IMG/VR virus record: IMGVR_UViG_3300027749_000070
Coordinates: 1-64,000 of that record
Length of the DNA stretch: 64,000 nucleotides
From: a virus
Reading direction: 5' to 3' (one strand)
Positions 4,801-40,915 of the stretch are shown one piece after another. The translations under genes and the position numbers were made by a program. Each line of letters starts with the position of its first letter. The first letter of the stretch is position 1. The notes beneath the pieces were generated by a model. That model ran no database searches, had not been told where the DNA came from, and saw only the letters and a list, made by a program, of their open reading frames with translations.

Positions 4801-5907
4801 ATTACCGGTTACACTCAAAGTACCACCAGAGAAGGATAATCCATAACCAATTGAATTTGGATTAATAGATAATCCATCTGTGCTTAAAGTTAAACCAGAA
4901 TTATTTGCTAATAGAATAGAATAAATAAAATTACTTTGTGTTAATCCAGAGTTATTTGAAATCGCAAGAGATACGGTACCCGTAAACACCGGTGTTTGCC
5001 AAGATGCAACACCATTAGCATCAGATGTTAAATATTTACCATTTCCTTGTGACCCATCTACATATCTAAACGAAGGTTGTGTTCCAAAGACATGAAGCTT
5101 ATGTGTTGGACTTGCTGTTCCAATACCAACTAACCCAAATGGAATAATAACAGAGGAAGTTGCATTGGACGACCCAGTTGCATTAACTCTAACTACATTT
5201 AAAATATTTACAGTATTTCCACTTACGGAACTTTGCGTACCACTTAAATATATAACATTATTGTCGGGGTCAAGAATGCCAAAATTAGGAGCATATATAT
5301 CAAGAAATCTATTAACGCCGCCTCTTGCCGTAATTTCTATGTTAGGAAATGAGTTAGAATTAAGGTATATACTAGACGCATCAATAGCCCCATTTACGAA
5401 TAAAGCAGGAGTATTAAAACTATTAGAAGCGGTAAATAAACTTATAAATGTCCCACCATCATAAATATTAGAATTAGTTATAGAATTAACATCATTAAAC
5501 TTAGGAATATACCCAGCAGTACCATTTATACCCTGACTAGAATATGGAATCCATATAGGAATACCTGAACTATTTACTGATAATATGTAACTTGCCGTTG
5601 CTGGTCCAAGTTGGCTAAAAACAGATGATGTCAAATATCCAACTTTTAACACACCATTAGCGAAAGTTAAACCATAATTATCTATATTAACAGATAAATT
5701 ATAATTATACAAACCAGAAGCAGTACTTGCGGTTAAGCCATTTCCTATATTATAAGATAGCGATTGTATTCTTTCAATACCGTCACTATTCATAGAGTAC
5801 CAATTACCATCTGTTTTAGGGTAAATTATAGAAGTATTACTACTTGGTGTTGCAACAATAGAAACTTGCTGCCATTCTTGTATATTATATATTTTATTAA
5901 CGCTCAT
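1900..5907 (-). CDS. Long tail fibre / adhesin-like virion protein
   Basis: 1335 aa, G/S/T/N-rich; GxGLT repeats, NIAIG/NxxIG trimeric beta-roll repeats, VGIGTxSP fibre motifs, C-terminal HNLNT motif. Confidence 0.75.
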   Translation of the reverse strand: MSVNKIYNIQEWQQVSIVATPSSNTSIIYPKTDGNWYSMNSDGIERIQSLSYNIGNGLTASTASGLYNYNLSVNIDNYGLTFANGVLKVGYLTSSVFSQLGPATASYILSVNSSGIPIWIPYSSQGINGTAGYIPKFNDVNSITNSNIYDGGTFISLFTASNSFNTPALFVNGAIDASSIYLNSNSFPNIEITARGGVNRFLDIYAPNFGILDPDNNVIYLSGTQSSVSGNTVNILNVVRVNATGSSNATSSVIIPFGLVGIGTASPTHKLHVFGTQPSFRYVDGSQGNGKYLTSDANGVASWQTPVFTGTVSLAISNNSGLTQSNFIYSILLANNSGLTLSTDGLSINPNSIGYGLSFSGGTLSVTGNFGINTGSGLTYSGNTYSVNLGINSGLTFSGTSVIIQIGSGLTLSNGSLASTGLVSNGVTNSFPYFNTSTSLTSSVIYQVSNNVLIGTSSNVGSKLYVAGSFSFTNDGIINSINIGRGLGNNILFGNRALSQATPGNYNIAIGDNALVSNQSTDNIAIGFSASNSISGAKQNIGIGNYVLSNSNSPNNVAIGYRAAFGVSDAGVYIGTYAGYAGGYNVVIGYNSGGNSSGSGNIIIGYNSGVNSSGSNNILLGYAAGVNFLGSYSVIIGGFDTTGAYASLNNSLNTLFISDGFGNLRIYSPSTGNILMGTTSETGSKLVVSGSASFYGNLKIVDSTQAAGRYLVSDSNGNTSWYMPVGLGMTISGYTFSVNLQTNSGLTVSMSGLAVNPNIAGYGLTYSGGSMSFTTNINASQGYIPYYNTVTSLTSSVIYQTSSNILVATTSNDGSRLQIAGSVSIYGKLKIIDGTQAANRLLVSDQYGIASWTSSTLLGSSFFAQGGNSFGATATLGTTDNRNMQVIAGGNNIILFATSSMTLNVPIVYSNANSGYSSLNNNGLIITNTTNGANGIGLNAASGGNPNLDFYINSVVKAGIGYTNIAPIGAKGLGITNLVASPYDAQLVLDEVGSLQWRDGSNGGSSIFRWSIDKNGAITQSVAQLLGSLSTSAYSITQTWNTSGTPTAIKMNITDTNSATASLFLDLQKSGVSQFNVDKNGNTIIGTASSDGSKLVVSGSASFYGNLKIVDSAQAAGRYLVSDSNGNTSWYMPVGLGMTISGYTFSVNLQANSGLSVSMSGLAINPNIAGYGLTYSGGSMSFTTNINASQGYIPYYNTTTSLTSSVIYQTSSNILIGTISNNGARLQIAGSVSIISATGNAFQLKDTTQGAGYILNSDVNGFGSWKPYKYSGTQSFTANLSQVIAHNLNTNFYIIQLFDYTTGEEILGAYTTRGLTQATITLSSNVSSCGIVIMG
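2210..3863. repeat. ~425-bp intragenic direct repeat (approx. 2210-2635 and 3438-3863)
   Basis: Copies offset by 1227 nt, both encoding GSKLVVSGSASFYGNLKIVDS...RLQIAGSVSI. Confidence 0.9.
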
Positions 5908-16644: not shown

Positions 16645-17433
16645 ATGAGTAAAAAATTATCTATCAACTTAAATAAGCGTTTCTTTCCAGATTTTATCGC
16701 TAAAATACAAGACTTATCCAGTATCAATGACGTTGTAAAACTGAAAATAGAAACTGATAAAGTTTTAATGTATGCCATGAAGGCAAATGATAATGCTGTT
16801 TTAGCATTAAAGAGTTATATACTTCCTACTACAAATTATTTCGATAATTTTAACCAAGAAGATATGTTTGATTTCATTATTGTTAATGCACCAAAGTTTA
16901 TCAAGTCATTAAAATTTTTTGACATTGATACACAAATTAAAATGGATGTAATTTATAAACCACACCATGAAAATGAAGGTGTAATGCAGATACGTTCAGC
17001 ACAATTTACTAATGGTAAATTAAAAATATCTACAATTGGTGGTGAAGATGATAAAATTAGAGATTTGAACGCTGAACTTCTTGAAACTAGAACTGATATA
17101 GAAAATGCTAGTTTTGATTTTCAAATTACTAAACATGATTTTAACGATGTTAAAAAATTATGTGCTATTGATTCGGAAGAAAAAATCTTATCTATTGATA
17201 TAGAAGAAGGAAAAATTGTAGCAAGCGAAATATCTAAATGGGAACTTCAACTAGGAGAAATTGATTCTTCATTTAACCAAAAAATTATTTTCAATAAAAA
17301 GTATTTATCAAATATAAATGGCGACATGGATATGATTAACTTTTATATGTTTGATACATTTATCTTAGTAAAGGATAATATATCTTCACTGATGCTTTCG
17401 TTTGAACAAACTTTTGATGAAGATGATGAATAA
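16645..17433 (+). CDS. Sliding clamp (gp45/PCNA-like)
   Basis: 262 aa, two-domain alpha/beta clamp pattern (FQITKHDFNDVKKL, IIFNKKYL), adjacent to UvsY. Confidence 0.6.
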   Translation: MSKKLSINLNKRFFPDFIAKIQDLSSINDVVKLKIETDKVLMYAMKANDNAVLALKSYILPTTNYFDNFNQEDMFDFIIVNAPKFIKSLKFFDIDTQIKMDVIYKPHHENEGVMQIRSAQFTNGKLKISTIGGEDDKIRDLNAELLETRTDIENASFDFQITKHDFNDVKKLCAIDSEEKILSIDIEEGKIVASEISKWELQLGEIDSSFNQKIIFNKKYLSNINGDMDMINFYMFDTFILVKDNISSLMLSFEQTFDEDDE

Positions 17434-17713
17434 GAACATTGATACCGAAGAAGAGTTGATGAAAATTTTGGTAGAAGAATTATCAAAAGAAGTTGATAAA
17501 CAGGTCATTAATGATGTAATGGCTTCTATGAAAATTATTGATGAATTTAATTTAAAACTTAAAGAAATTAAAGCTTTTAATAGAGAAATACAAATTGATA
17601 ATATATTATACGGTACTAATAATGCACTTCTAGAAATAGAAAAGACAGAAGAATATAATAAATTATCAGATGAACTTAAACAAGAATATATTAAAAATGG
17701 TAGATTATTATGA
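17423..17713 (+). CDS. Major-capsid (gp23) central-helix fragment plus NRExQID module
   Basis: IDTEEELMKILVEELSKEVDKQVI ~ T4 gp23 MDADAELSGILATEIMLEINREVV. Confidence 0.55.
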   Translation: MMNKNIDTEEELMKILVEELSKEVDKQVINDVMASMKIIDEFNLKLKEIKAFNREIQIDNILYGTNNALLEIEKTEEYNKLSDELKQEYIKNGRLL

Positions 17714-18021
17714 CACAAAGCTTAATAGGACATAAAAGTCCAGATATTCAAACAGGTATTGTATTTGCGCCATATATTCATATGGAATCAACCGCAATAA
17801 TAGAATCATCCTTGCTTAAAAAAGCTGAAATAAAGGTTAAAGCAATTAACCGTGAAAGACAAATAGACTCGATTTTAGAAGATAAAGATTTTATACCAAT
17901 GGATATAAAAGAAACTGCCGAATATAAAGAGTTTGAAAATACATATATGAAACCTTTAACAGGTATAAAAAGTAGATATGCAATAGCATCAATTGGAAAT
18001 GAGTATAAAAAAACAAACTAA
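17710..18021 (+). CDS. Major-capsid (gp23) C-terminal fragment with inserted NRExQID module
   Basis: GHKSPDIQTGIVFAPY...KPLTGIKSRYAI ~ gp23 GYKGPNEMDAGIYYAPY...QPVMGFKTRYGI. Confidence 0.7.
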   Translation: MTQSLIGHKSPDIQTGIVFAPYIHMESTAIIESSLLKKAEIKVKAINRERQIDSILEDKDFIPMDIKETAEYKEFENTYMKPLTGIKSRYAIASIGNEYKKTN

Positions 18022-18475
18022 AGAAGAACTAATAGATAAATGGGAACCAGTTTTAGATAAAATGGGATTATCTGGTGATAAAAAAGATTGGATGGCTCAA
18101 TATGCAGAGGCGCAATCAACAGCAGACGCTAATAATAGCAGCTCGTTATGGAACCAACAAATTGCACAATTAGGTGGAACCGCAAGTGATCCTTTTTCAG
18201 CAGCAATTTTTCCAGTAGTTAGAAGAGTTGCAGCAACAACCATATCAAATGGTGATGTTGAACTTTTGAAAAAGGCTGAAAATATGGTGATAGCTGTCAA
18301 TCGTGAAAAACAAATTGATTCTATATTAGAAGATAAAGATCCTACACTTATATCAATAGAAGATACCGAAGAATATAAAGAATATCTAAATAGCGGTTTA
18401 GTTTCAGTCAAACCTATGTCTGCTCCATCTGGATTGTTATATTTTCTGGACTATAAATATGATGATAAAAAATAA
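17999..18475 (+). CDS. Major-capsid (gp23) N-terminal fragment with inserted NRExQID module
   Basis: TKEELIDKWEPVL ~ gp23 TKAELLNKWKPLL; VVRRVAATTI...VSVKPMSAPSG ~ MVRRAIPNLI...GVQPMNSPTG. Confidence 0.75.
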   Translation: MSIKKQTKEELIDKWEPVLDKMGLSGDKKDWMAQYAEAQSTADANNSSSLWNQQIAQLGGTASDPFSAAIFPVVRRVAATTISNGDVELLKKAENMVIAVNREKQIDSILEDKDPTLISIEDTEEYKEYLNSGLVSVKPMSAPSGLLYFLDYKYDDKK

Positions 18476-19587: not shown

Positions 19588-20685
19588 TTATTTTAATATA
19601 AAATGTTCTTCAATTAATGAGTTTTTGGAAGAATTTATACTACGCTTTGTTATGCACAAATTAGAAATATCAGCAATTTCTTCAGCAGGTATATTATTGG
19701 AAAAGCCATAAAAAGTAGATATTTTATGATCTATTGTTGGATATAACTTACTTGTAGAAGTGTTAGACAAATAACCTTTTATGAACTCATTATCATAGTA
19801 GTCATATCCTTCCCATTTTTCATATAATTCTTTTTTAAATTTATTTGTAAAATTTCTTACTTTCTTTTTGTAAATTTCCCAATCAGTCAATAGCTCATCT
19901 TTAATTACAAATCCATTTATCTTTTTAGTTTCCAAAATCTTATAATATATTTCTTTTACTTGTGAAACATTTTCAACACCATATTTTTCTATACAAGTAT
20001 TTTTAATTTTTTCACGAATTTTTAATATATTATTTTTGTAATTATTTTTATGCTCTTCTGTTTTAAAAATCCAGTCAACTCCATATTTTTCTATGAATGT
20101 GTTCCTAATTTTGCTAACAATTACATCTTTATTTTCGCTAATTCCTTTTTTAAATTTGTCAGTTTTTGAATAAGAATCAACACCATATATCTCAATTAGT
20201 GTTTTTTTAGATTTTTCTTTAAATTCATTAGAAGACATCCATTTCTTATTTTGTTCTTTTGATTCTTGCGTCTTAAACCAAGAATCAACTCCATATTTCT
20301 CTAACATTGTTTTCTTTCCTTTTTTTGAGCCCTTTTTAATGCCTTTCCATTTTAAAGATTCAGTTTCTTTAAACTCGTTTGTTTGTGAGTATGATTTAAC
20401 TCCATATTTTTCTATACATGTTTTTTCACGCTCTATATTTTTACATTTAAAGCAAGAATAATATCCTTTATTATTTCTTTCAGTGTTAACATGGTATTTA
20501 TTTATTGACATTTCTGTTTCAGAAGAGCATATTTCGCATATTGCTGTAATTCTGTTATTTGAACCTTTTGGTATATTTAATGGATTTACAGATATTTCTT
20601 TTTCTTTTATCAGATAACCCAATTTTTCATAATATGATTTATTTCTTTGATTTATTTTAACATTAATTTCCTTTTCTTTTATCAT
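19588..20685 (-). CDS. Free-standing HNH-type homing endonuclease with EKYGV repeats
   Basis: Zn finger, several (E/I)(K/I)YGV repeats, C-terminal TIDHKIS...NLCITKRSINSSK. Confidence 0.7.
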   Translation of the reverse strand: MIKEKEINVKINQRNKSYYEKLGYLIKEKEISVNPLNIPKGSNNRITAICEICSSETEMSINKYHVNTERNNKGYYSCFKCKNIEREKTCIEKYGVKSYSQTNEFKETESLKWKGIKKGSKKGKKTMLEKYGVDSWFKTQESKEQNKKWMSSNEFKEKSKKTLIEIYGVDSYSKTDKFKKGISENKDVIVSKIRNTFIEKYGVDWIFKTEEHKNNYKNNILKIREKIKNTCIEKYGVENVSQVKEIYYKILETKKINGFVIKDELLTDWEIYKKKVRNFTNKFKKELYEKWEGYDYYDNEFIKGYLSNTSTSKLYPTIDHKISTFYGFSNNIPAEEIADISNLCITKRSINSSKNSLIEEHFILK

Positions 20686-20775
20686 ATACCTTATATGATA
20701 AAAATAACTATAAGTTCTGTTTAGAACTAATTTGAAAAAGTTAAAACTTTTTCACTTAATTTTCATATAAAACTT

Positions 20776-20883
20776 ATGAATAAAAATGAAAAACTCGAAA
20801 AATTAGAGTTATTAAAAAACAAAGCGAGCGAGCTGAAAAAGGACGTGGATTATTATAATGCACTCCAGCTCGCTCTTTTTTAG
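20776..20883 (+). CDS. Family B DNA polymerase gp43B, first segment (35 aa, ends at motif B QLAL)
   Basis: MNKNEKLEKLELLKNKASELKKDVDYYNALQLALF*; not in the ORF track; preceded by a middle-type promoter. Confidence 0.75.
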   Translation: MNKNEKLEKLELLKNKASELKKDVDYYNALQLALF

Positions 20884-20917
20884 CCCCCACCCACTTGTGG
20901 TTGGGGGCATAGGACTA
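20878..20917 (+). other. 40-nt coding-gap element (stop plus GC hairpin) inside polymerase motif B
   Basis: CTT|TTT TAG CCCCCACCCACTTGTGGTTGGGGGCATAGGA CTA|AAA; removal restores QLALKLVLNGSYG. Confidence 0.75.
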
Positions 20918-21517
20918 AAATTAGTATTAAACGGCAGCTATGGCGCATTTGCAGCAGCATATTTTGTATTGTTCAATAACCACGTTGCTTCCAGTATTAC
21001 TGCACAAGGTAGAGATTTAACTAAAACAATGAATCGTGTTAATGAAGATTATTGGTATAATCAATGGCATTTAGATACATTATTACATAATGACGTTTGT
21101 ATAAGAAATGTTAAACAAATTATAGAAACTAATCATGTTAGCATCTATGCGGATACTGATAGCTGTTTCTCGGAAACACTTGTGAACACAAACAATGGAG
21201 AAAAAACAATTGAAAATTGGTATAATGAAAACATCAAAAATGGATCAGCAGGTGAAACAATTAAAGGTCACGAATCGGTTTTAACAAATGATAAAATATT
21301 AAATTGGTCTGAAAGTAATAAAATTTATTATACTCCGGTTAAAAGAATTATTAGACATAAAGTATCTAAGCCGAAATGGAAATTGAAAACTAAATCTGGC
21401 AAAGAAATTATAGTTACTAACGACCATTCTATGATAGTGTTTAGAGACGGTATTAAATTGGAAATTAAACCATCAGAAATATTAAAAACTGATAAAATTT
21501 TGGTAATTAAAAATTAA
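20918..21517 (+). CDS. Family B DNA polymerase motif B-C segment fused to split-intein N-half
   Basis: KLVLNGSYG, ITAQGR, YADTD, then intein SCFSETLV...VTNDHS. Confidence 0.9.
   Translation, partial: KLVLNGSYGAFAAAYFVLFNNHVASSITAQGRDLTKTMNRVNEDYWYNQWHLDTLLHNDVCIRNVKQIIETNHVSIYADTDSCFSETLVNTNNGEKTIENWYNENIKNGSAGETIKGHESVLTNDKILNWSESNKIYYTPVKRIIRHKVSKPKWKLKTKSGKEIIVTNDHSMIVFRDGIKLEIKPSEILKTDKILVIKN
21161..21514 (+). mobile_element. Split intein N-fragment (118 aa) at the Pol-c site
   Basis: Block A S-C-F-S-E-T-L-V follows YADTD; block B IIVTNDHS; ORF stops with no intein C-terminus. Confidence 0.9.
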
Positions 21518-21545: not shown

Positions 21546-22655
21546 ATGGAACTAAATAAAAAATTTATAGAATGGTTTAATAAAAATAAAAACGCAGAAG
21601 AATATAATAAAATATTCAATTTGTATTTTAATAATCTATCCAAATGTAGAATTTGTAATAATCCAATATATTATTATGATTCTACATTTAGAATAGATAA
21701 ATCAGGAATTTTGCAATTACATAAAAAATCATGTTTAACATCTAAAAATGTAAATAAAGAATATACATTATCCATATGTGAAGAATGTTTGATTAAAAAA
21801 TATCCAGAATATAATAACAAAAATAAGCCAAAGGTTTTTAATCAAATGAATTATTTAACTGAATATGCTTTTAATATACCAAATGACATTTCTTTAATTT
21901 GGATGAAAGAAAAATATGCTATTACAGAAGAAAATCTAACAAAAAAACATGGCAAAAAAATTGGCAAAGAAAAATGGATAAATTATTGTAATAAACAATC
22001 CAAAACTAATACATTTGAATATAAGAAAGAAAAATATGGTTGGGATAAAGAAAAATTTGACGACTATAACCGTTCAAGATCGGTAACATTAGAAAATTTG
22101 ATAAAAAGGAATGGTACTGAAGAAGGTTTAAATATTTGGAAAAATTATTGTGATAGGCAAAAATATACGACAAGTCTAAACTATTTTATAGAAAAAAATG
22201 GATTGGAAAAAGGCACTGAAATATATGAAAATTTTTGTAAAAAAAGATTATTTGGAGCAGGATATTCAGAGGTATCTAAAAAATTATTTGATGAACTGAA
22301 AAAACGTTTTGTTAATAATAATTATACAGTATATTACGCTGAAAATGAGTGGTATTTTTGTGAAAAAGATAAAGGATATTATTTATTGGATTTCTTTATT
22401 AAAGAATTGAATATTGGAATAGAATTTAACGGAGATATATGGCACGCAAATCCACTTAAATACAAGCCACATGATAAGCCTATTTTATTTCAAAAAGATA
22501 TTACTGCCGAATTTATTTGGCAAAAAGATAAAATAAAAAATGATTTTCTGAAAACAAAATTAGATAAATTACTAATAATTTGGGAATCAGATTTTTACAA
22601 AGACGGAATTGATAGAACAATAGATAAAATATTAAAAGAAATAAATGATAAATAA
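21546..22655 (+). CDS. Free-standing Vsr/DUF559-like homing endonuclease between the intein halves
   Basis: K(Y/H/N)G.E.G repeats; LDFFIKELNIGIEFNGDIWHANP...D..K...IIWESD; own late promoter at 21515. Confidence 0.8.
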   Translation: MELNKKFIEWFNKNKNAEEYNKIFNLYFNNLSKCRICNNPIYYYDSTFRIDKSGILQLHKKSCLTSKNVNKEYTLSICEECLIKKYPEYNNKNKPKVFNQMNYLTEYAFNIPNDISLIWMKEKYAITEENLTKKHGKKIGKEKWINYCNKQSKTNTFEYKKEKYGWDKEKFDDYNRSRSVTLENLIKRNGTEEGLNIWKNYCDRQKYTTSLNYFIEKNGLEKGTEIYENFCKKRLFGAGYSEVSKKLFDELKKRFVNNNYTVYYAENEWYFCEKDKGYYLLDFFIKELNIGIEFNGDIWHANPLKYKPHDKPILFQKDITAEFIWQKDKIKNDFLKTKLDKLLIIWESDFYKDGIDRTIDKILKEINDK

Positions 22656-22800
22656 AGTAGAACATGAAAAAATAGAATATTTTTTTGATGAAATAGAATC
22701 GTGTGAAGTGATTGGTAATTTTGAAGACGAATATGTTTATGATGTTGAGGTGGATGATGAAACACATACATTTATTGGAAATGATATATTAGTACATAAT
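22645..22800 (+). mobile_element. Split intein C-fragment (52 aa)
   Basis: VYDVEV...HTFIGNDILVHN followed by +1 Ser (SLFV). Confidence 0.92.
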
Positions 22801-23988
22801 TCGCTTTTTGTATCATTTAAACCAGCTATGGATCATTGTGATTGGAGAAATTTATTTTTTGATAATTTAGATAAACTAACAAAAAAGTTTTTCATAATAA
22901 CAGGTAATTCACAAGTTAATACAGACAATCCTAATTATCATGGCTCTTGGAGTTTTGATCCAAATGATGACCCTGAAACAATTGGTCATATTAAAGACAT
23001 AATCGAAACTGATTGCGATTATATAATTGTTGATGGTTTTTGGATTAAAAATCGTGATTTCGAAAAATTCATATCCGAAAATAATTATCAATCAAAACTT
23101 AAATGGAATTGGTCAAATGAACTTGACTTCATACAAGGTTTAGATTATTACCGATATGCTGGTTATTTCAAGAAATGTCTTGAAGAATATGCAGATAGCT
23201 ATGGTGTGACTAATAAGGAAGATTTTGAATTAGAAAGAATTAGTGAATCAGTTATTTATTTAGCTAAGAAAAAGTATATTCAACACATCGTACATGAAGA
23301 TGGTATTGATTATGATAGATTAACTTATTTATATCCAAAAGGAGTTGAACTTGTTAGATCTTCTACGCCATTATTTGCGAGAGATAAAATTGTGGATATT
23401 ATTAAATACTTATTTACTAATCCAGATACATTTACTATTAGAGAATTACTTAAATTGGTTAAGAACCTTAGAAAAGAATTTGACTTATGTGTCCCAGATA
23501 AGATAGATGATATCTGTATGCAATCGTCATGTTCAAACTATGAGGAAAAAGTTCTTAATGATAAAGAAAAATTAGAGTTTATTAATGGTGCACACTTTGC
23601 GGTTAAAGCATCAGCTTATTATAACCACTTATTACACAAGCATAAAGATATACAAGCTAAATATGACTTCATCAAATCAGGAACTAAAATTAAGTATTAC
23701 TATTGTAAAGACACTACTATTGGTAAAGTATTTGCTTATATGCGTGGTTCTTATCCAATTGAAATAGCACCCGAAATAGATCTAAATGAACAATTTGCAA
23801 AATGTATCTTATCACCGATTAACTCGATTATTGAGCCATTGGGTCTTCCAGAAATTACAAAAAGACTTTCGGTCGTGTTAGATATATTTGGTGGATCTTT
23901 ACAAAAGAAGAAAAAAGAAGAACAAGAAGAGGATGATTATAGTGATGAAGAATACAACAATAGAAAATGGGATAATTGGGATTATTAA
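22645..23988 (+). CDS. Intein C-half fused to family B polymerase palm/thumb
   Basis: SLFV after HN; FELE, AKKKY, KGVELVRSSTP, KSGTKIKY. Confidence 0.9.
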   Translation: MINKVEHEKIEYFFDEIESCEVIGNFEDEYVYDVEVDDETHTFIGNDILVHNSLFVSFKPAMDHCDWRNLFFDNLDKLTKKFFIITGNSQVNTDNPNYHGSWSFDPNDDPETIGHIKDIIETDCDYIIVDGFWIKNRDFEKFISENNYQSKLKWNWSNELDFIQGLDYYRYAGYFKKCLEEYADSYGVTNKEDFELERISESVIYLAKKKYIQHIVHEDGIDYDRLTYLYPKGVELVRSSTPLFARDKIVDIIKYLFTNPDTFTIRELLKLVKNLRKEFDLCVPDKIDDICMQSSCSNYEEKVLNDKEKLEFINGAHFAVKASAYYNHLLHKHKDIQAKYDFIKSGTKIKYYYCKDTTIGKVFAYMRGSYPIEIAPEIDLNEQFAKCILSPINSIIEPLGLPEITKRLSVVLDIFGGSLQKKKKEEQEEDDYSDEEYNNRKWDNWDY

Positions 23989-27362: not shown

Positions 27363-28931
27363 TTAGACATTCTTAGGACGCATTTGAGGAAATAATAAAA
27401 CATCTTGTATAGACGCTTGTCCTGTCATCAACATAGCCAATCTATCTATACCTATGCCTATACCAGCAGTTGGTGGCATACCATATTCTAATGCTTGTAT
27501 ATAATCATTATCAATATACATAGCTTCGTCATCACCTCTATCCATTAGTTCCATCTGTTCTTCAAAACGGTGTCTTTGATCAATAGGATCATTTAACTCA
27601 CTATATGCATTAGCTATTTCTTTACCATTGACTATTAACTCAAATCTTTCAACTAAACCTTCTTTTGAACGATGTTTTTTAGTTAAAGGACTCATTTCAA
27701 TAGGATAATCTATGATAAATGTTGGTTGTATATAATGGTGTTCGCAGCAATTACCAAATATAGTGTCAATTAACTTACCTTTACCATCAGTTTGACTGAC
27801 TTTTATATTTAATTGACTACAAGTATCAAGTAATTGACGTTGTTGCATATTAGAAATATCTATACCAGTATGTTCTTTAATAGAATCATAGATACTAATT
27901 CTTTTATATGGACCCTTAAAATCTATTACATTATTACCTACCGTAAAACTATAAGAAGGATAAGAGCAATCTTCACAATTTACTTGATATGCTATATATT
28001 CTAACATTTTCTCAGTAGTATTCATCATCCACTCATAATCTTTATATGCAGCATAATATTCCATAACCGTGAACTCTGGGTTATGTGTTCTATCCATGCC
28101 TTCATTTCTAAAATTACGACTAAATTCATAAACAGAATCAAACCCACCTACAATCAATCTCTTTAAATATAGTTCATTTGCAATACGTAAATATAAAGGT
28201 ATATCTAATGCATTATGATGCGTCTTAAATGGGCGAGCGGCAGCTCCACCTGGTATACTTTGTAATACCGGTGTATCAACTTCTAATGCACCTAAACTAT
28301 TTAGGTGGGTCCGCATAGCGTTTTTTAATATGGTTATTTTTCTAAAAGTAGTTTTCACTTCTGGATTAATAATCAAATCAACATAACGATGCCTATATCT
28401 AAATTCAGGATCATTTACTTTATCAAATTCTTGTCCATCTTTCTCCTTTGTAATAGGAAGCGGATGTAAACTCTTCGATAATAATGTAAATTCTGTGACA
28501 TGAATAGTTGTTTCGCCGGTTTTTGTAGTAAAGACATAACCTTTTACGCCGATAAAATCTCCTATATCAAGTAGTTTTTTCCATACGGTATTATAAAGAG
28601 TTTTATCTTCATTAGGACAAATATCATCTCTTTTTATGTATAATTGTATTTTACTAGTTCCATCCTGGATATAAGCAAAATTAGCTTTACCCATATCTTG
28701 TATAGACATAAGCCTACCCGCAATAGAAACTTTATCGAACTCCATATAAATATCAAGTTCATCGCTATCAGCTAAAATCAATCTTTGGTTATCATAAGTT
28801 TCCTTTACATACATAGCATGTATGTAGTTTATATTATGTGTAGTTTCGTAAGTAGCTGCTGGATAGGGATTTATACCTAACGCTATAAGCTGTTCTAATT
28901 TTTGCCTTCTTATTATTTCTTGTTCTGTCAT
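27363..28931 (-). CDS. lysS: Lysyl-tRNA synthetase (class II), Bacteroidota-like
   Basis: [58 protein letters not shown]. Confidence 0.97.
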
Positions 28932-37650: not shown

Positions 37651-39225
37651 ATGGAATTTACATATGATCCAAAAACAGAGAAATTAATAGTAGCACAAGC
37701 AACAAGAACCGAATATCATCAATTAGATATTTGGCTTACAAGAAATCCCAAGGGATATCGTTTCACACCTGCATTTAAAGCGGGGTATTGGGATGGTAAA
37801 GATTCAGTTTTTAATGGCGGTAAAATAAATCAAGGGCTATGGAAAGAATGTCTTAAAGCATGTCAAATAATAAATGCAAAATTCACTATTACAAATAAGG
37901 AAGAATTTCCAATTAATAGAAATGTAACATTTGAAAAAGTACAAGAATTTTGTAAAGATTTTTTTAAAAACCATAAAGTTAAAAAAGACGGCGAATGGAT
38001 CCCATTTATGCCTTATGATCACCAAATAGAAACCGCATTTAAAATATTAAAGAACCGCTATTGTTTAGCAGAAGTTGCTACGTCAGGTGGTAAATCTTTA
38101 ATTATTAGTATTGTATATTTTTATACTTTAACACATCTTAATCCGGATGCTAAAATGCTTTTAATAGTTCCGTCAATATCATTAGTTACGCAGTTCTTTG
38201 ATGATATTATAGATTACAATATTGGTCAAAATAAAGATTTAGATGGAGGTAATCCTAATAAATTAACCTTAAATATCGAAGAAATTATGTCTGATAGACC
38301 TAGGAAGCATTCTAATGCCGAAAATCCAAATATTTGTATAGGAACTTATCAATCTTTAATTAATTATCCTAATGATTTTTTCGAACAATTTCATACTGTA
38401 GCATGTGATGAAGCACATACCTGTAAAGCAAAATCGTTAAAAACTATTCTAAATAAAACATTTGGACACGCCTATAATAGATATGGCGTATCAGGTACAT
38501 TTCCAACAGAAGAAACTATGGAAATATTAACCATACAATCTGTTCTTGGTCCAATTATATCTAATGTAGAAGCAAAAACATTAATTGAAAAAGGTATAAT
38601 TACACAAATGGATATTAAAGTGCTTATGTTAAATCATAATGATAAAGAATTTAATGATAAAGTTGCCTATATTAAAAGAGCGGGTGGTGGTAAAGAAGCT
38701 TATCTAATTGAGAAAGAATATATTCATCAATCTGATAAAAGATTAGAGTTTATGAAAAAAATAGTTGAAAAATGTAATAATAATACATTAATCTTATTTC
38801 ATACAATAGAATATGGACAAAGAATATTAGAAAAAATGTCATCTGAAATAAAAGATAAAGAATTTTATTATATTGATGGTGAAGTTAATGGCAAAAAACG
38901 TGAGGAAATAAAGAAAAATATGGAATTAAATGATGGTAAAGTAAAGATACTCGTTGCTTCTTTTGGGACTTTAAGTACAGGCGTTAGCATTAAAAATCTA
39001 CACAATATTATATTTGCAGATTCTTTCAAATCTGAACAAATGATTATACAAAGTGTGGGTCGAGCATTGAGATTATTTGATGGAAAAAAAACAGCAAATA
39101 TTTTTGATTTAGTTGATATTTTTGAAAAAGATCCTAATAATATTTTTTACAAGCAATTCTTAGAACGTGAATCCTTCTATGTTAAGAGATCTTATCCTTA
39201 TAAAATACTTAAAATAAACTTATAA
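37651..39225 (+). CDS. uvsW: UvsW-like SF2 DNA helicase
   Basis: WDGK, PYDHQ, ATSGGKS, DEAH, SGT, STGVSIKNLH, QSVGRALR. Confidence 0.92.
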   Translation: MEFTYDPKTEKLIVAQATRTEYHQLDIWLTRNPKGYRFTPAFKAGYWDGKDSVFNGGKINQGLWKECLKACQIINAKFTITNKEEFPINRNVTFEKVQEFCKDFFKNHKVKKDGEWIPFMPYDHQIETAFKILKNRYCLAEVATSGGKSLIISIVYFYTLTHLNPDAKMLLIVPSISLVTQFFDDIIDYNIGQNKDLDGGNPNKLTLNIEEIMSDRPRKHSNAENPNICIGTYQSLINYPNDFFEQFHTVACDEAHTCKAKSLKTILNKTFGHAYNRYGVSGTFPTEETMEILTIQSVLGPIISNVEAKTLIEKGIITQMDIKVLMLNHNDKEFNDKVAYIKRAGGGKEAYLIEKEYIHQSDKRLEFMKKIVEKCNNNTLILFHTIEYGQRILEKMSSEIKDKEFYYIDGEVNGKKREEIKKNMELNDGKVKILVASFGTLSTGVSIKNLHNIIFADSFKSEQMIIQSVGRALRLFDGKKTANIFDLVDIFEKDPNNIFYKQFLERESFYVKRSYPYKILKINL

Positions 39226-39265: not shown

Positions 39266-40915
39266 ATGTTAAAAGATAAATTATTAGTAAATGGAAAATT
39301 TGATAGTAGGACAAAAGAAGAATATATTAAAAAACATTATCCTTTATATTATCAAGAGATATTAGACTTTGTTATATTATATAAATTTGAAAATTTTGAA
39401 TGGAAAAGAAAATTATATCATTATATGTATGATATTAAAAATATACCTATATGTGTATGTGGTAATGAAATAAATTTTAGAGGTAGAATAGAAAAAATCT
39501 ATAACGATTTTTGTTCAACAAAATGTTCAGCTATAAATGTTTCAGTTAAAAGAATGGAAACATTAGAGAAAAATAACATGGAAAAATATGGTGTTAAAAA
39601 TGTTTTTCAATTAGACTCAGTTAAACAAAAAAGCAAAAATACTTGTTTAGAAAAATATGGTTTCGATAATCAAAACAAATCAGTTATAATAAAGAATAAA
39701 ATAAAGGAAACTAATTTAAAAAAATACGGAAGTGAATATTATATGGGTAGTTTGGATTTTATGGAAAAATCTAAAACAACATGCTTAGAAAAATATGGCA
39801 GTACTCATCCTATGAAAAATTTAGATATCAAAGAAAAGTTAAAAAATGTATTTATAAAAAAATATGGCACTAATACTATTTCAGAAAATGATAAATTTAG
39901 AAAAGATAATTTTTGTATAGCAAAAAATATAAATTATATTAAATATATTGGAAATCGTATTTCTCTATTTAAATGTGATTTAGGAAAAAACCACGAGTTT
40001 GAAATATCTAAAAATATTTATATAACTAGAACAAAAGCCAATAATCCTTTATGCACTATTTGTTATCCTATATCAGAAAATAATTCAATAAAAGAATTAG
40101 AACTATTAAGATTTATTCAAGAAAATTATAAAGGTGAAATTTTACCTGGGTGGAGAGGTCAACTAGAAATAGATATTTATTTACCCGAATTAAATATAGG
40201 ATTCGAATTTAATGGACTTTACTGGCATTCAGAAGAATATAAAAAAAATAATTACCACTTAGATAAAACATTATTTTTTAAAGATAAAGGCATAAAGATT
40301 ATACACATATGGGAGGATGATTGGGATAACAAGAAAGATATAATAAAAAGCCAAATTATAAATTATTTAGGATTAACAGAAACGAAAATATTCGCTAGAA
40401 AATGTCAAATTAGAGAAATTATAGATTCGTCTAATTTTTTAGATACTAATCATATTCAAGGAAATGCTAAATCTGTTATTAAATTAGGGTTATTTTATAA
40501 TAATGAGTTAGTTTCTGTTATGTCATTTGATAATTTTGAAGGTAGAAAGAAGATGGAACAAAGTGGATGGAATTTAAGCAGATTTTGTAATAAAATAAAT
40601 TATAATGTTATTGGTGGTGCAAGTAAATTATTAAATTATTTTATTAAAACTTATACCCCATCGAGAATAATTAGTTATGCTGATCGTAGTTGGTCTGAAG
40701 GGAATTTGTACTACCAATTAGGATTTAAATTGGTAAACGAAAGTAAACCAGATTATAAATATATCGTTAATAACGTTAGAGAAAATAAAACAAAATATAA
40801 AAAATCTAAATTAATTAAAAACGGATTTATAGGCACAGAAAAAGAAATAACAGAAAATCTTGGTTATAAGAGAATATACGATTGTGGTAAAATTAAATTT
40901 GAATATATCTTATAA
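39266..40915 (+). CDS. Hef-like homing endonuclease (KYG repeats, Vsr-like nuclease, C-terminal GNAT-like domain)
   Basis: About five KYG repeats; EIDIYLPELNIGFEFNGLYWHS; FARKC...HIQG...SRFC...GGASKLL...SYADR. Confidence 0.75.
   Translation: MLKDKLLVNGKFDSRTKEEYIKKHYPLYYQEILDFVILYKFENFEWKRKLYHYMYDIKNIPICVCGNEINFRGRIEKIYNDFCSTKCSAINVSVKRMETLEKNNMEKYGVKNVFQLDSVKQKSKNTCLEKYGFDNQNKSVIIKNKIKETNLKKYGSEYYMGSLDFMEKSKTTCLEKYGSTHPMKNLDIKEKLKNVFIKKYGTNTISENDKFRKDNFCIAKNINYIKYIGNRISLFKCDLGKNHEFEISKNIYITRTKANNPLCTICYPISENNSIKELELLRFIQENYKGEILPGWRGQLEIDIYLPELNIGFEFNGLYWHSEEYKKNNYHLDKTLFFKDKGIKIIHIWEDDWDNKKDIIKSQIINYLGLTETKIFARKCQIREIIDSSNFLDTNHIQGNAKSVIKLGLFYNNELVSVMSFDNFEGRKKMEQSGWNLSRFCNKINYNVIGGASKLLNYFIKTYTPSRIISYADRSWSEGNLYYQLGFKLVNESKPDYKYIVNNVRENKTKYKKSKLIKNGFIGTEKEITENLGYKRIYDCGKIKFEYIL

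Follow-up and report, generated by a model that had tools for sequence, protein, structure and literature searches.

How does a phage obtain a working DNA polymerase from a gene that is interrupted, within a conserved active-site motif, by a stop codon, a GC-rich hairpin and a change of reading frame? The question is raised by IMG/VR virus record IMGVR_UViG_3300027749_000070 (91 kb, estimated completeness ∼36%), the first 64 kb of which (∼27% GC; hereafter the window) were analyzed here. A first-pass annotation of the window had pointed to 40 nucleotides (nt) inside motif B of a family-B DNA polymerase gene and had suggested that ribosomes hop over them. We propose that these 40 nt are a coding gap that is borne by a homing endonuclease and crossed by translational bypassing, analogous to the mobA/gene 60 system of phage T4, in another gene and with another architecture, and based on sequence comparisons and on the analogy we put the probability of this reading at roughly 0.68.

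Anatomy of the Interrupted Polymerase Gene

The window gene encodes the C-terminal fragment of a split polymerase and lies on the plus strand. Its first 34 codons (20776–20877) run from the fingers helix to the Q-L-A-L of motif B and are part of a 35-codon open reading frame (ORF; 20776–20883) that begins MNKNEKLEKLELLKNKASELKKDVDYYNALQLALF and ends with GCT (20872–20874), CTT (20875–20877), TTT (20878–20880) and TAG (20881–20883). The CTT that closes the 34 codons is the proposed take-off codon. It is followed by the 40-nt gap (20878–20917, plus strand), made up of TTT TAG, a hairpin, the hexamer ATAGGA (20909–20914) and, directly after it, the proposed landing codon CTA (20915–20917). The hairpin (20883–20908, plus strand; GCCCCCA-C-CCA-CTTG-TGG-T-TGGGGGC) begins 5 nt past the take-off codon and consists of 7 bp, a 1-nt bulge, 3 bp and a 4-nt loop, and the segment has a folding energy of −19.6 kcal/mol. 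A search of Rfam with positions 20500–21300 gave no match at E ≤ 1.

Beyond the gap the polymerase resumes in the +1 frame, in an ORF that spans 20858–21517 and in which the CTA at 20915 leads into K-L-V-L-N-G-S-Y-G-A-F-A, with AAA TTA GTA TTA AAC GGC AGC TAT GGC starting at 20918. The resumed frame (20918–21163, plus strand) extends from the K-L-V-L-N-G-S-Y-G of motif B to the Y-A-D-T-D-S of motif C and matches Pfam DNA_pol_B and positions 516–585 of phrog_262, and the ORFs on both sides of the gap match family-B polymerase models (Pfam DNA_pol_B; phrog_262, phrog_1918 and phrog_27191). The 40 nt are a clean surplus relative to gapless relatives, are not divisible by 3 and include the in-frame TAG. 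When they are skipped, the product reads Q-L-A-L-K-L-V-L-N-G-S-Y-G, collinear with the gapless relatives, and the Q-x3-K-x3-N-x2-YG spacing of motif B is regained. Hence the first-pass description of the ORF end, stop codon, hairpin, hexamer, CTA and resumption in the +1 frame is correct to the base, and so is its claim that a skip of exactly 40 nt restores the motif. With tblastn the same 34 residues are recovered at the start of the gene in more than 70 relatives, gapped and gapless alike.

A Family of Gaps in Genes Under Purifying Selection

A search of IMG/VR with the C-terminal extein of the polymerase (described below) gave 77 related loci, 75 of which could be assessed on both sides of the gap. 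A hairpin insert of 36–48 nt is present in motif B in 46 of these 75 contigs and absent from the other 29. With that of the window included, there are 33 distinct gap sequences, which come from many metagenomes and occupy about six positions in motif B; most tallies given below cover 32 of them, and since they share cassette ancestry, distinct gaps are not the same as independent events. The window gap is one of 14 at site A1, after Q-L-A-L (CTT ... CTA, then AAA). Another five are located one codon earlier (site A2; GCT ... GCT or GCA, then YTN AAA), two after K-L-V (site C; GTT ... GTT or GTA), one after N-G-S (site D; TCT ... TCA), two after N-G (site E; GGT ... GGT) and nine after N-G-S-Y (site B), where there is no matched triplet.

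The gapped polymerase genes are functional, as indicated by selection and by copy number. In pairs of gapped genes the ratio of nonsynonymous to synonymous substitutions (dN/dS) downstream of the gap is 0.03–0.13 over 350–450 codons, and the frames are intact to the natural stop; the extra stops in the C-terminal alignments of L032, L060 and L076 were rejected as further gaps because they are natural gene ends. In addition, two gapped relatives that are 98% complete (483 and 465 kb) each contain exactly one gene for the N-terminal polymerase fragment and one for the C-terminal fragment, and the sole C-fragment gene is the gapped one. That the gene has been inactivated, by a recent disruptive insertion or by an assembly or homopolymer error, and that another polymerase replicates the genome, is thus very improbable. 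The low completeness of the window record does leave room for a second copy in this particular phage, and exact-pattern scans of IMG/VR and of Joint Genome Institute (JGI) metagenome contigs found no further copy, and so no independent assembly, of the exact hairpin, but inactivation is difficult to reconcile with 33 distinct gaps from independent metagenomes whose downstream frames are all intact and whose stems covary. The more specific alternative in the first-pass annotation, an inactivating mini-element of the IS200/IS605 type, does not hold up for the same reasons, and also because the hairpin has no other copy: no further C5...G5 hairpin exists in the window or anywhere in the 91-kb record. 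Palindromic mini-elements (PATEs) derived from IS200/IS605 and miniature inverted-repeat transposable elements (MITEs) were therefore rejected, the neighboring gene encoding an HNH nuclease and not TnpA/TnpB. Gene callers split or drop such polymerase genes, which affects polymerase-based phylogenies and the completeness estimates of huge phages.

If the genes are functional, the gap has to be either translated or avoided. Gap lengths fall into all three classes modulo 3 (14, 9 and 9), the in-frame gaps hold stop codons, and a single frameshift could rescue only 10 of 32 gaps, with TGA directly preceding the landing codon in many. The gaps of L039 and L040 differ from that of L042, all after Q-L-A-L, by one G in the G-run of the 3′ arm (41 versus 42 nt), which is either a real length polymorphism in an untranslated gap or a homopolymer sequencing error. 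Taken together these points argue that the gap sequence is not translated and, as no start codon is conserved after the gaps, that neither a single frameshift nor re-initiation is a general solution.

The window by itself could be read otherwise. A +1 slip of tRNA-Phe on U UUU UAG while the stop occupies the A site, the situation in prfB, would allow the hairpin to be read through, giving a junction NALQLALFSPHPLVVGGIGLK and placing 13 extra residues (FSPHPLVVGGIGL) in the fingers helix. Such a slip is feasible in the window, where no stop interrupts the +1 frame between 20858 and the end of the gap and where a T6 run before a stop is well suited to a +1 shift, and it was among the alternatives of the first-pass annotation. 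However, the window's combination of an open +1 frame and a prfB-like site is not conserved among relatives, a single shift is unusable in 22 of the 32 homologous gaps, and L058 has the same CTT TTT TAG and yet a TGA before CTA. Moreover, there is no conservation among the "peptides" that the gaps would encode, and the Q-x3-K-x3-N-x2-YG spacing, intact in all gapless relatives, would be lost through the insert. A GC-rich 40-mer is, besides, often free of stops in a given frame by chance. We therefore consider the slip quite improbable.

It is also highly unlikely that the gene is truly split, with the 35-residue peptide and a separately initiated downstream protein assembling non-covalently. 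The polymerase is already built from separately encoded pieces, and the G-rich 3′ arm lies 5–8 nt before the point of resumption, both of which would suit this explanation. Yet independent re-initiation was rejected as a general explanation for want of a conserved start codon: in 12 of 32 gaps the nearest in-frame ATG, GTG or TTG is 29 codons or more further on. In the window no such start occurs between the gap and a point well beyond motif B, Shine-Dalgarno motifs are scarce in the genome, and the break would fall between conserved residues inside a single conserved 13-residue motif. The comparative data hence favor the hop that the first-pass annotation put forward over both the slip and the mini-element.

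Gap Geometry, Stem Covariation and Matched Codons

The architecture of the gaps is uniform. In every case the last motif-matching codon is followed by 5–6 nt and then by a stem, mostly of 10–12 bp and up to 19 bp, with a loop that is mostly 4 nt, and there are usually 4–8 nt between the stem and the landing triplet. Folding energies across the family range from −17.5 to −34.6 kcal/mol. Pairs at stem positions 1–6 are mostly C-G, and each of positions 7–11 has four to six types of Watson-Crick or wobble pair, so there has been extensive compensatory change. A covarying stem-loop is thus found in 32 of 32 gaps, and its position and size are unlike those in T4.

The flanking codons are equally constrained. 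Candidate take-off and landing codons come from one codon box in 23 of 32 distinct gaps, the window pair (CTT at 20875, CTA at 20915) belonging to the CUN box. The matched pairs are CTT-CTA (13), CTC-CTA (1), GCT-GCT/GCA, GTT-GTT/GTA, TCT-TCA and GGT-GGT. Of 13 tallied A1 sequences, 12 have CTT as take-off codon and one has CTC, with CTA as landing codon in every one of the 13 (the tally left out the fourteenth, L063, which also has CTT and CTA), whereas six different codons serve this Leu position in gapless genes, and elsewhere in the motif the Leu codons are free to vary. Take-off codons of the 23 matched gaps all have U as their third base, apart from one with C, and the landing codon has A there or repeats the take-off codon, and the pairs whose codons differ (Leu CUN, Ala, Val and Ser UCN) all belong to four-codon boxes. 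By the wobble rules, a tRNA with U34 would be expected to pair weakly with an NNU take-off codon and strongly with an NNA landing codon.

Two caveats attached to the window in the first-pass annotation turn out to be the norm for the family. One was that the stop stands one codon after the take-off codon, with TTT between CTT and TAG in the window. The first in-frame stop is in fact one codon later in 22 gaps, directly after the matched codon in four, and later or absent in six (n = 32). The other was that the landing codon is only a synonymous match, and NNU to NNA within a four-codon box is what relatives typically show as well.

Site B is distinct in that the triplets before resumption are AAC (four gaps), GAC, AGC, CAA and TAA (two gaps), seven of the nine matching the Tyr anticodon at two positions. 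In two site B loci, L007 and L015, the stem is 19 bp (∼−34.5 kcal/mol) and extends over the Tyr codon of take-off, the additional codon and the stop codon, TATGTCTAA pairing with TTAGACATA in the extension.

Association With an HNH Homing Endonuclease

Directly upstream of the C-fragment gene is a gene on the opposite strand (19588–20685, minus strand) for a 365-residue HNH-type homing endonuclease. The protein has an N-terminal Cys4 motif, five KYGV repeats that correspond to DUF7487, and a C-terminal HNH domain; it matches Pfam DUF7487 and phrog_3339 ("homing endonuclease"). Across 17 homologs the C-terminus has an invariant YPT-DHK...NLCITKR-INS-K that includes DH...N...N. Pfam gave no match with the C-terminus alone, and Foldseek with the whole predicted structure gave none at E ≤ 0.001; the HNH match came from a second structural comparison, in which model residues 264–365, in the C-terminus, aligned with the Gme HNH nicking endonuclease (4h9d_A; Z-score 8.4, root-mean-square deviation 4.3 over 85 residues) and with the HNH domains of Cas9 (Z-score ∼5).

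The nuclease and the gap are linked. A DUF7487-HNH nuclease gene is upstream in 21 of 33 distinct gapped loci and in none of 21 gapless ones (Fisher p = 1e-6), and its absence from the other gapped loci looks like the outcome of "hit and run" losses. There are two deep clades of the nuclease, and they track the half of the motif in which the gap is located, the first (A1, A2 and C) or the second (B, D and E), with the exception of one chimeric locus. On the polymerase phylogeny, a quick tree, the gap state is scattered, and well-supported branches force at least ten changes of state. Sister pairs include L009 (gap at site B) with gapless L011, L018 (A1) with gapless L019, and L004 (D) with L005 (A1). 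L009 and L011 share 98% amino acid identity and flanks that are 93–99% identical, and they differ by the ∼900-bp nuclease gene present in L009, by a clean 39-nt indel and by about eight synonymous changes crowded into the 27 nt before the gap. The nuclease gene and the gap thus occur together in the one and are both missing from its close relative. L018 and L019 likewise differ by a clean 40-nt indel, so close homologs bear out the indel that the first-pass annotation expected.

Unrelated endonuclease-like genes occupy the same intergenic site in two gapless loci (L047–L049, ∼4818–5579, minus strand; L075, 4306–5196, minus strand), with matches to phrog_314 (homing endonuclease) and phrog_559 (HNH endonuclease), and gapped L005 has a relative of the L047 protein. 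The intergenic site upstream of the C-fragment gene is a hotspot for several nuclease families. Elsewhere in the window, a second protein with DUF7487 repeats (549 residues; 39266–40915, plus strand) is encoded just after a DEAD-box/ResIII helicase gene (37651–39225) and is probably another homing endonuclease; no hairpin gap was seen near it.

Proposed Bypassing Mechanism

We propose that the 40 nt and the neighboring HNH endonuclease gene arrived as one mobile cassette. At the DNA level, the insert and the clustered synonymous changes would destroy the target of the nuclease in the motif-B DNA, such that the genome carrying the cassette is protected and gapless relatives are cut and converted. 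At the RNA level, the gap would be kept in the mRNA and passed over by the ribosome. The constant distance between codon and hairpin suggests a hairpin-at-entrance mechanism, in which peptidyl-tRNA-Leu would leave CUU (20875–20877) as the hairpin, 5 nt further on, sits at the mRNA entrance. There the hairpin would block normal translocation or A-site decoding, and the tRNA would be uncoupled from the mRNA during the passage of the take-off codon from the A to the P site. Ribosomes that fail to take off would be halted by the UAG one codon on. The mRNA would then slide until the same tRNA re-pairs with CUA (20915–20917), 6 nt past the hairpin, and decoding would restart at AAA to give ...Q-L-A-L-K-L-V-L-N-G-S-Y-G, with NALQLALKLVLNGSYG as the junction peptide. 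Finally, the product would be trans-spliced by a split intein encoded downstream and would join the separately encoded N-terminal fragment of the polymerase. The existence, recurrence, single-copy status and nuclease linkage of the gap, its anatomy and the selection on the downstream frame are observations; from them we infer that bypassing occurs, which codons serve for take-off and landing, and the role in immunity.

Several points weigh against this proposal. The case for the hop, in the window and in all family members, is made by comparing DNA sequences. In the window a codon intervenes between the matched codon and the UAG, and at take-off the A site would hold plain UUU. One tRNA could serve both CUU and CUA only if the tRNA-Leu(UAG) of the host also reads U-ending codons. 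A landing aid of the gene 60 kind, by Shine-Dalgarno pairing, is doubtful: AGGA abuts CTA in the window and a G-run is present 7 nt upstream, and Shine-Dalgarno-like motifs are found at the starts of only 2 of 51 genes. Because no stop closes the +1 frame within the window gap, a simple +1 slip at U6-AG is conceivable locally. Above all, none of the nine distinct site B gaps offers a cognate triplet for landing (AAC, GAC, AGC, CAA or TAA is there instead), and hence re-pairing of the anticodon cannot be the whole rule.

Site B is also the main reason why RNA-level excision and a landing that is driven by geometry both stay live. By excision, the gap would be cut out of the mRNA and the ends re-ligated around the hairpin, so that a continuous message is translated. 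The clean indels would be expected from such a process, as would the N-G-S-Y site, which needs no matched codon, and the hairpin as the sole universal feature. We nevertheless regard excision as unlikely. It leaves unexplained the pair of codons from one box in 23 of 32 gaps and the fixed take-off and landing codons, the boundaries are in unpaired flanks, there is no Rfam match, and reading through the gap sequences, which was not a systematic scan, revealed neither a conserved boundary sequence nor flanks of the bulge-helix-bulge type. Furthermore, we know of no bacterial or phage system that splices hairpins of 36–48 nt.

Returning to bypassing, a bolder version of it is that the gaps constitute a second, independently evolved family of natural long-range bypasses, borne by an HNH homing endonuclease in huge phages that probably infect Bacteroidota. 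Take-off would then be caused by a long hairpin at a fixed 5–6 nt, and landing would be set mainly by the geometry of the hairpin, not by anticodon scanning or Shine-Dalgarno pairing. This is tentative, and we would not bet on it as a whole, although landing set by geometry would explain both the site without a matched landing codon and the NNU-NNA rule elsewhere.

Comparison With Known Systems

The T4 gene 60 bypass, part of the gene 39/mobA/gene 60 cassette, covers 50 nt and has homologs in the topoisomerase genes of myoviruses (Huang, 1988; Bonocora, 2011; both as cited in Manning and Atkins, bioRxiv 10.1101/2022.08.31.505936). As presented in that preprint, mobA and the gene 60 gap form a mobile cassette in which the gap protects against nicking, and some gene 60 homologs have codon pairs that differ at the wobble position or a rare sense codon instead of a stop after the take-off codon. 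Such cases provide a precedent for both of the caveats discussed above. The preprint states that nothing similar had been reported from other phages (bioRxiv 10.1101/2022.08.31.505936). A search of the literature in full text, which included few subscription journals, likewise found gene 60 homologs in topoisomerase genes only and no description of polymerase gaps.

The first-pass annotation had compared the layout of the window to that of T4 gene 60 and of the Magnusiomyces mitochondrial byps, and the comparison stands for the codon pair and the hairpin; the multi-copy spread of byps and the topoisomerase setting of gene 60 have no counterpart here. The endonuclease gene upstream, which the annotation did not mention, makes the parallel to mobA/gene 60 much closer. 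In both systems an essential replication enzyme is encoded as a split gene, an HNH homing-endonuclease gene lies directly upstream of the downstream fragment, and a gap of a few tens of nt is located 34–46 codons into that fragment. Both have a take-off codon, a nearby stop, a stem-loop and a landing codon of the same box, and in both the gap and nuclease are gained and lost together, with "hit and run" loci that retain the gap only.

The differences are also clear. The host gene here is a family-B polymerase, with the gap in motif B, rather than a topoisomerase, and the nuclease, which is encoded on the opposite strand, has no detectable sequence similarity to MobA beyond the HNH fold; no T4-like mob gene was found among the 23 phage records that match it. 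The polymerase gaps are shorter (36–48 nt) and have one long GC hairpin of 10–12 bp, 5–6 nt past the take-off codon, whereas gene 60 has a short stem-loop that takes in the stop. The stop is often one codon later here, or absent, the gaps occur at about six codons of the motif, one of these sites is without a matched landing codon, and the host apparently lacks Shine-Dalgarno pairing. Unlike gene 60, the polymerase gaps are known so far as sequences.

The byps of Magnusiomyces capitatus mitochondria are bypassed inserts of 27–55 nt whose relatives are mobile elements of the GC-cluster type (Lang, 2014; Nosek, 2015; as cited in the sources consulted). Like the polymerase gaps, they are short GC-rich hairpin inserts in essential genes of an AT-rich genome, with lengths indivisible by 3 and matching codons on either side, and ribosomes are presumed to pass over them. 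As described in those sources, however, byps are self-spreading and number 81 per genome, with up to 12 per gene, whereas the phage gap is found once per genome, in every case within one particular motif of a single gene, and moves together with a homing endonuclease.

A third comparison is to "fractured genes," in which a split intein has a free-standing homing endonuclease between its halves (Dassa et al., 2009, PMC2677866). The same arrangement is present in the window gene, 250 nt downstream of the gap. In fractured genes the invasion by a nuclease is mended at the protein level, whereas the 40-nt gap has no intein and needs an answer at the level of the RNA or the ribosome.

If our proposal is correct, the implications extend beyond this locus. 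To our knowledge, efficient long-range bypassing has published support in two natural systems only, T4 gene 60 with its topoisomerase homologs and Magnusiomyces mitochondria, and the rules of bypassing derive almost wholly from one 50-nt sequence. The polymerase gaps would then be a ready-made mutational series for the rules of take-off and landing, comprising no fewer than 33 variants that occur in nature and are spread over several codons of a single motif, and they would add a different hairpin design, a host that is likely independent of Shine-Dalgarno pairing and one site without codon matching. In addition, homing endonucleases would have been paired more than once with an untranslatable "immunity" insert in an essential active-site motif.

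Split Polymerase, Intein and Genomic Context

The record contains only positions 516–839 of the phrog_262 profile, consistent with a C-terminal fragment. In the two 98%-complete relatives the N-terminal fragment (positions ∼6–504) is a separate gene at least 100 kb away. On the plus strand after motif C, the N-terminal half of the split intein (21164–21517) starts with the Cys that follows DTDS and ends at the stop (Pfam Intein_splicing, positions 23–94 of 155), and the C-terminal half (22645–22800) ends in ...VHN (positions 115–155 of 155). Between them a free-standing ORF of 369 residues (21546–22655, plus strand) matches phrog_22677 (E 1e-47), a family of unknown function, and has a weak hint of REase_MTES_1575 (E 0.085); it is a probable endonuclease. 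The C-terminal extein (palm and thumb; 22801–23988, plus strand) begins with Ser, matches positions 595–839 of phrog_262 (E 1e-34) and has 45–77% identity over the best segment to the 77 related loci. Given the split gene, the gap and the split intein, the finished enzyme would be reached only through assembly of its subunits, a hop by the ribosome and trans-splicing of the protein.

The closest GenBank genomes (LR756502.1 and LR745206.1) are from uncultured huge phages of 635–642 kb; both are gapless and unannotated and so offer no annotation precedent. The Shine-Dalgarno-like core is upstream of only 2 of the 51 window genes, and many of these genes have a TAATATATAA-like motif within 25 nt before the start, which together suggest, on sequence grounds, a Bacteroidota-like host and a phage promoter or leader motif. 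No tRNA genes were found in the window, and those of the 483-kb gapped relative are only Met, Gln, Cys and one unclassified, so there is no phage tRNA for the take-off codon. The gene just upstream of the C-fragment gene, or of the nuclease gene, in L011 (5176–5607, plus strand) and its L009 equivalent matches phrog_9787 ("translation initiation factor," E 3e-34), in gapless and gapped genomes alike. The window also encodes a class II aminoacyl-tRNA synthetase of the Asp/Lys/Asn type (27363–28931, minus strand; Pfam tRNA-synt_2, E 4e-88), phage-encoded synthetases being typical of huge phages. Upstream of the polymerase locus, at 17402–18475 (plus strand), are three tandem paralogous small ORFs (103, 103 and 160 residues) with the common motif NRE-x-QID-(S/N)-IL...TEEY, the third of which has a weak match to a major-head-protein PHROG (E 3e-5).

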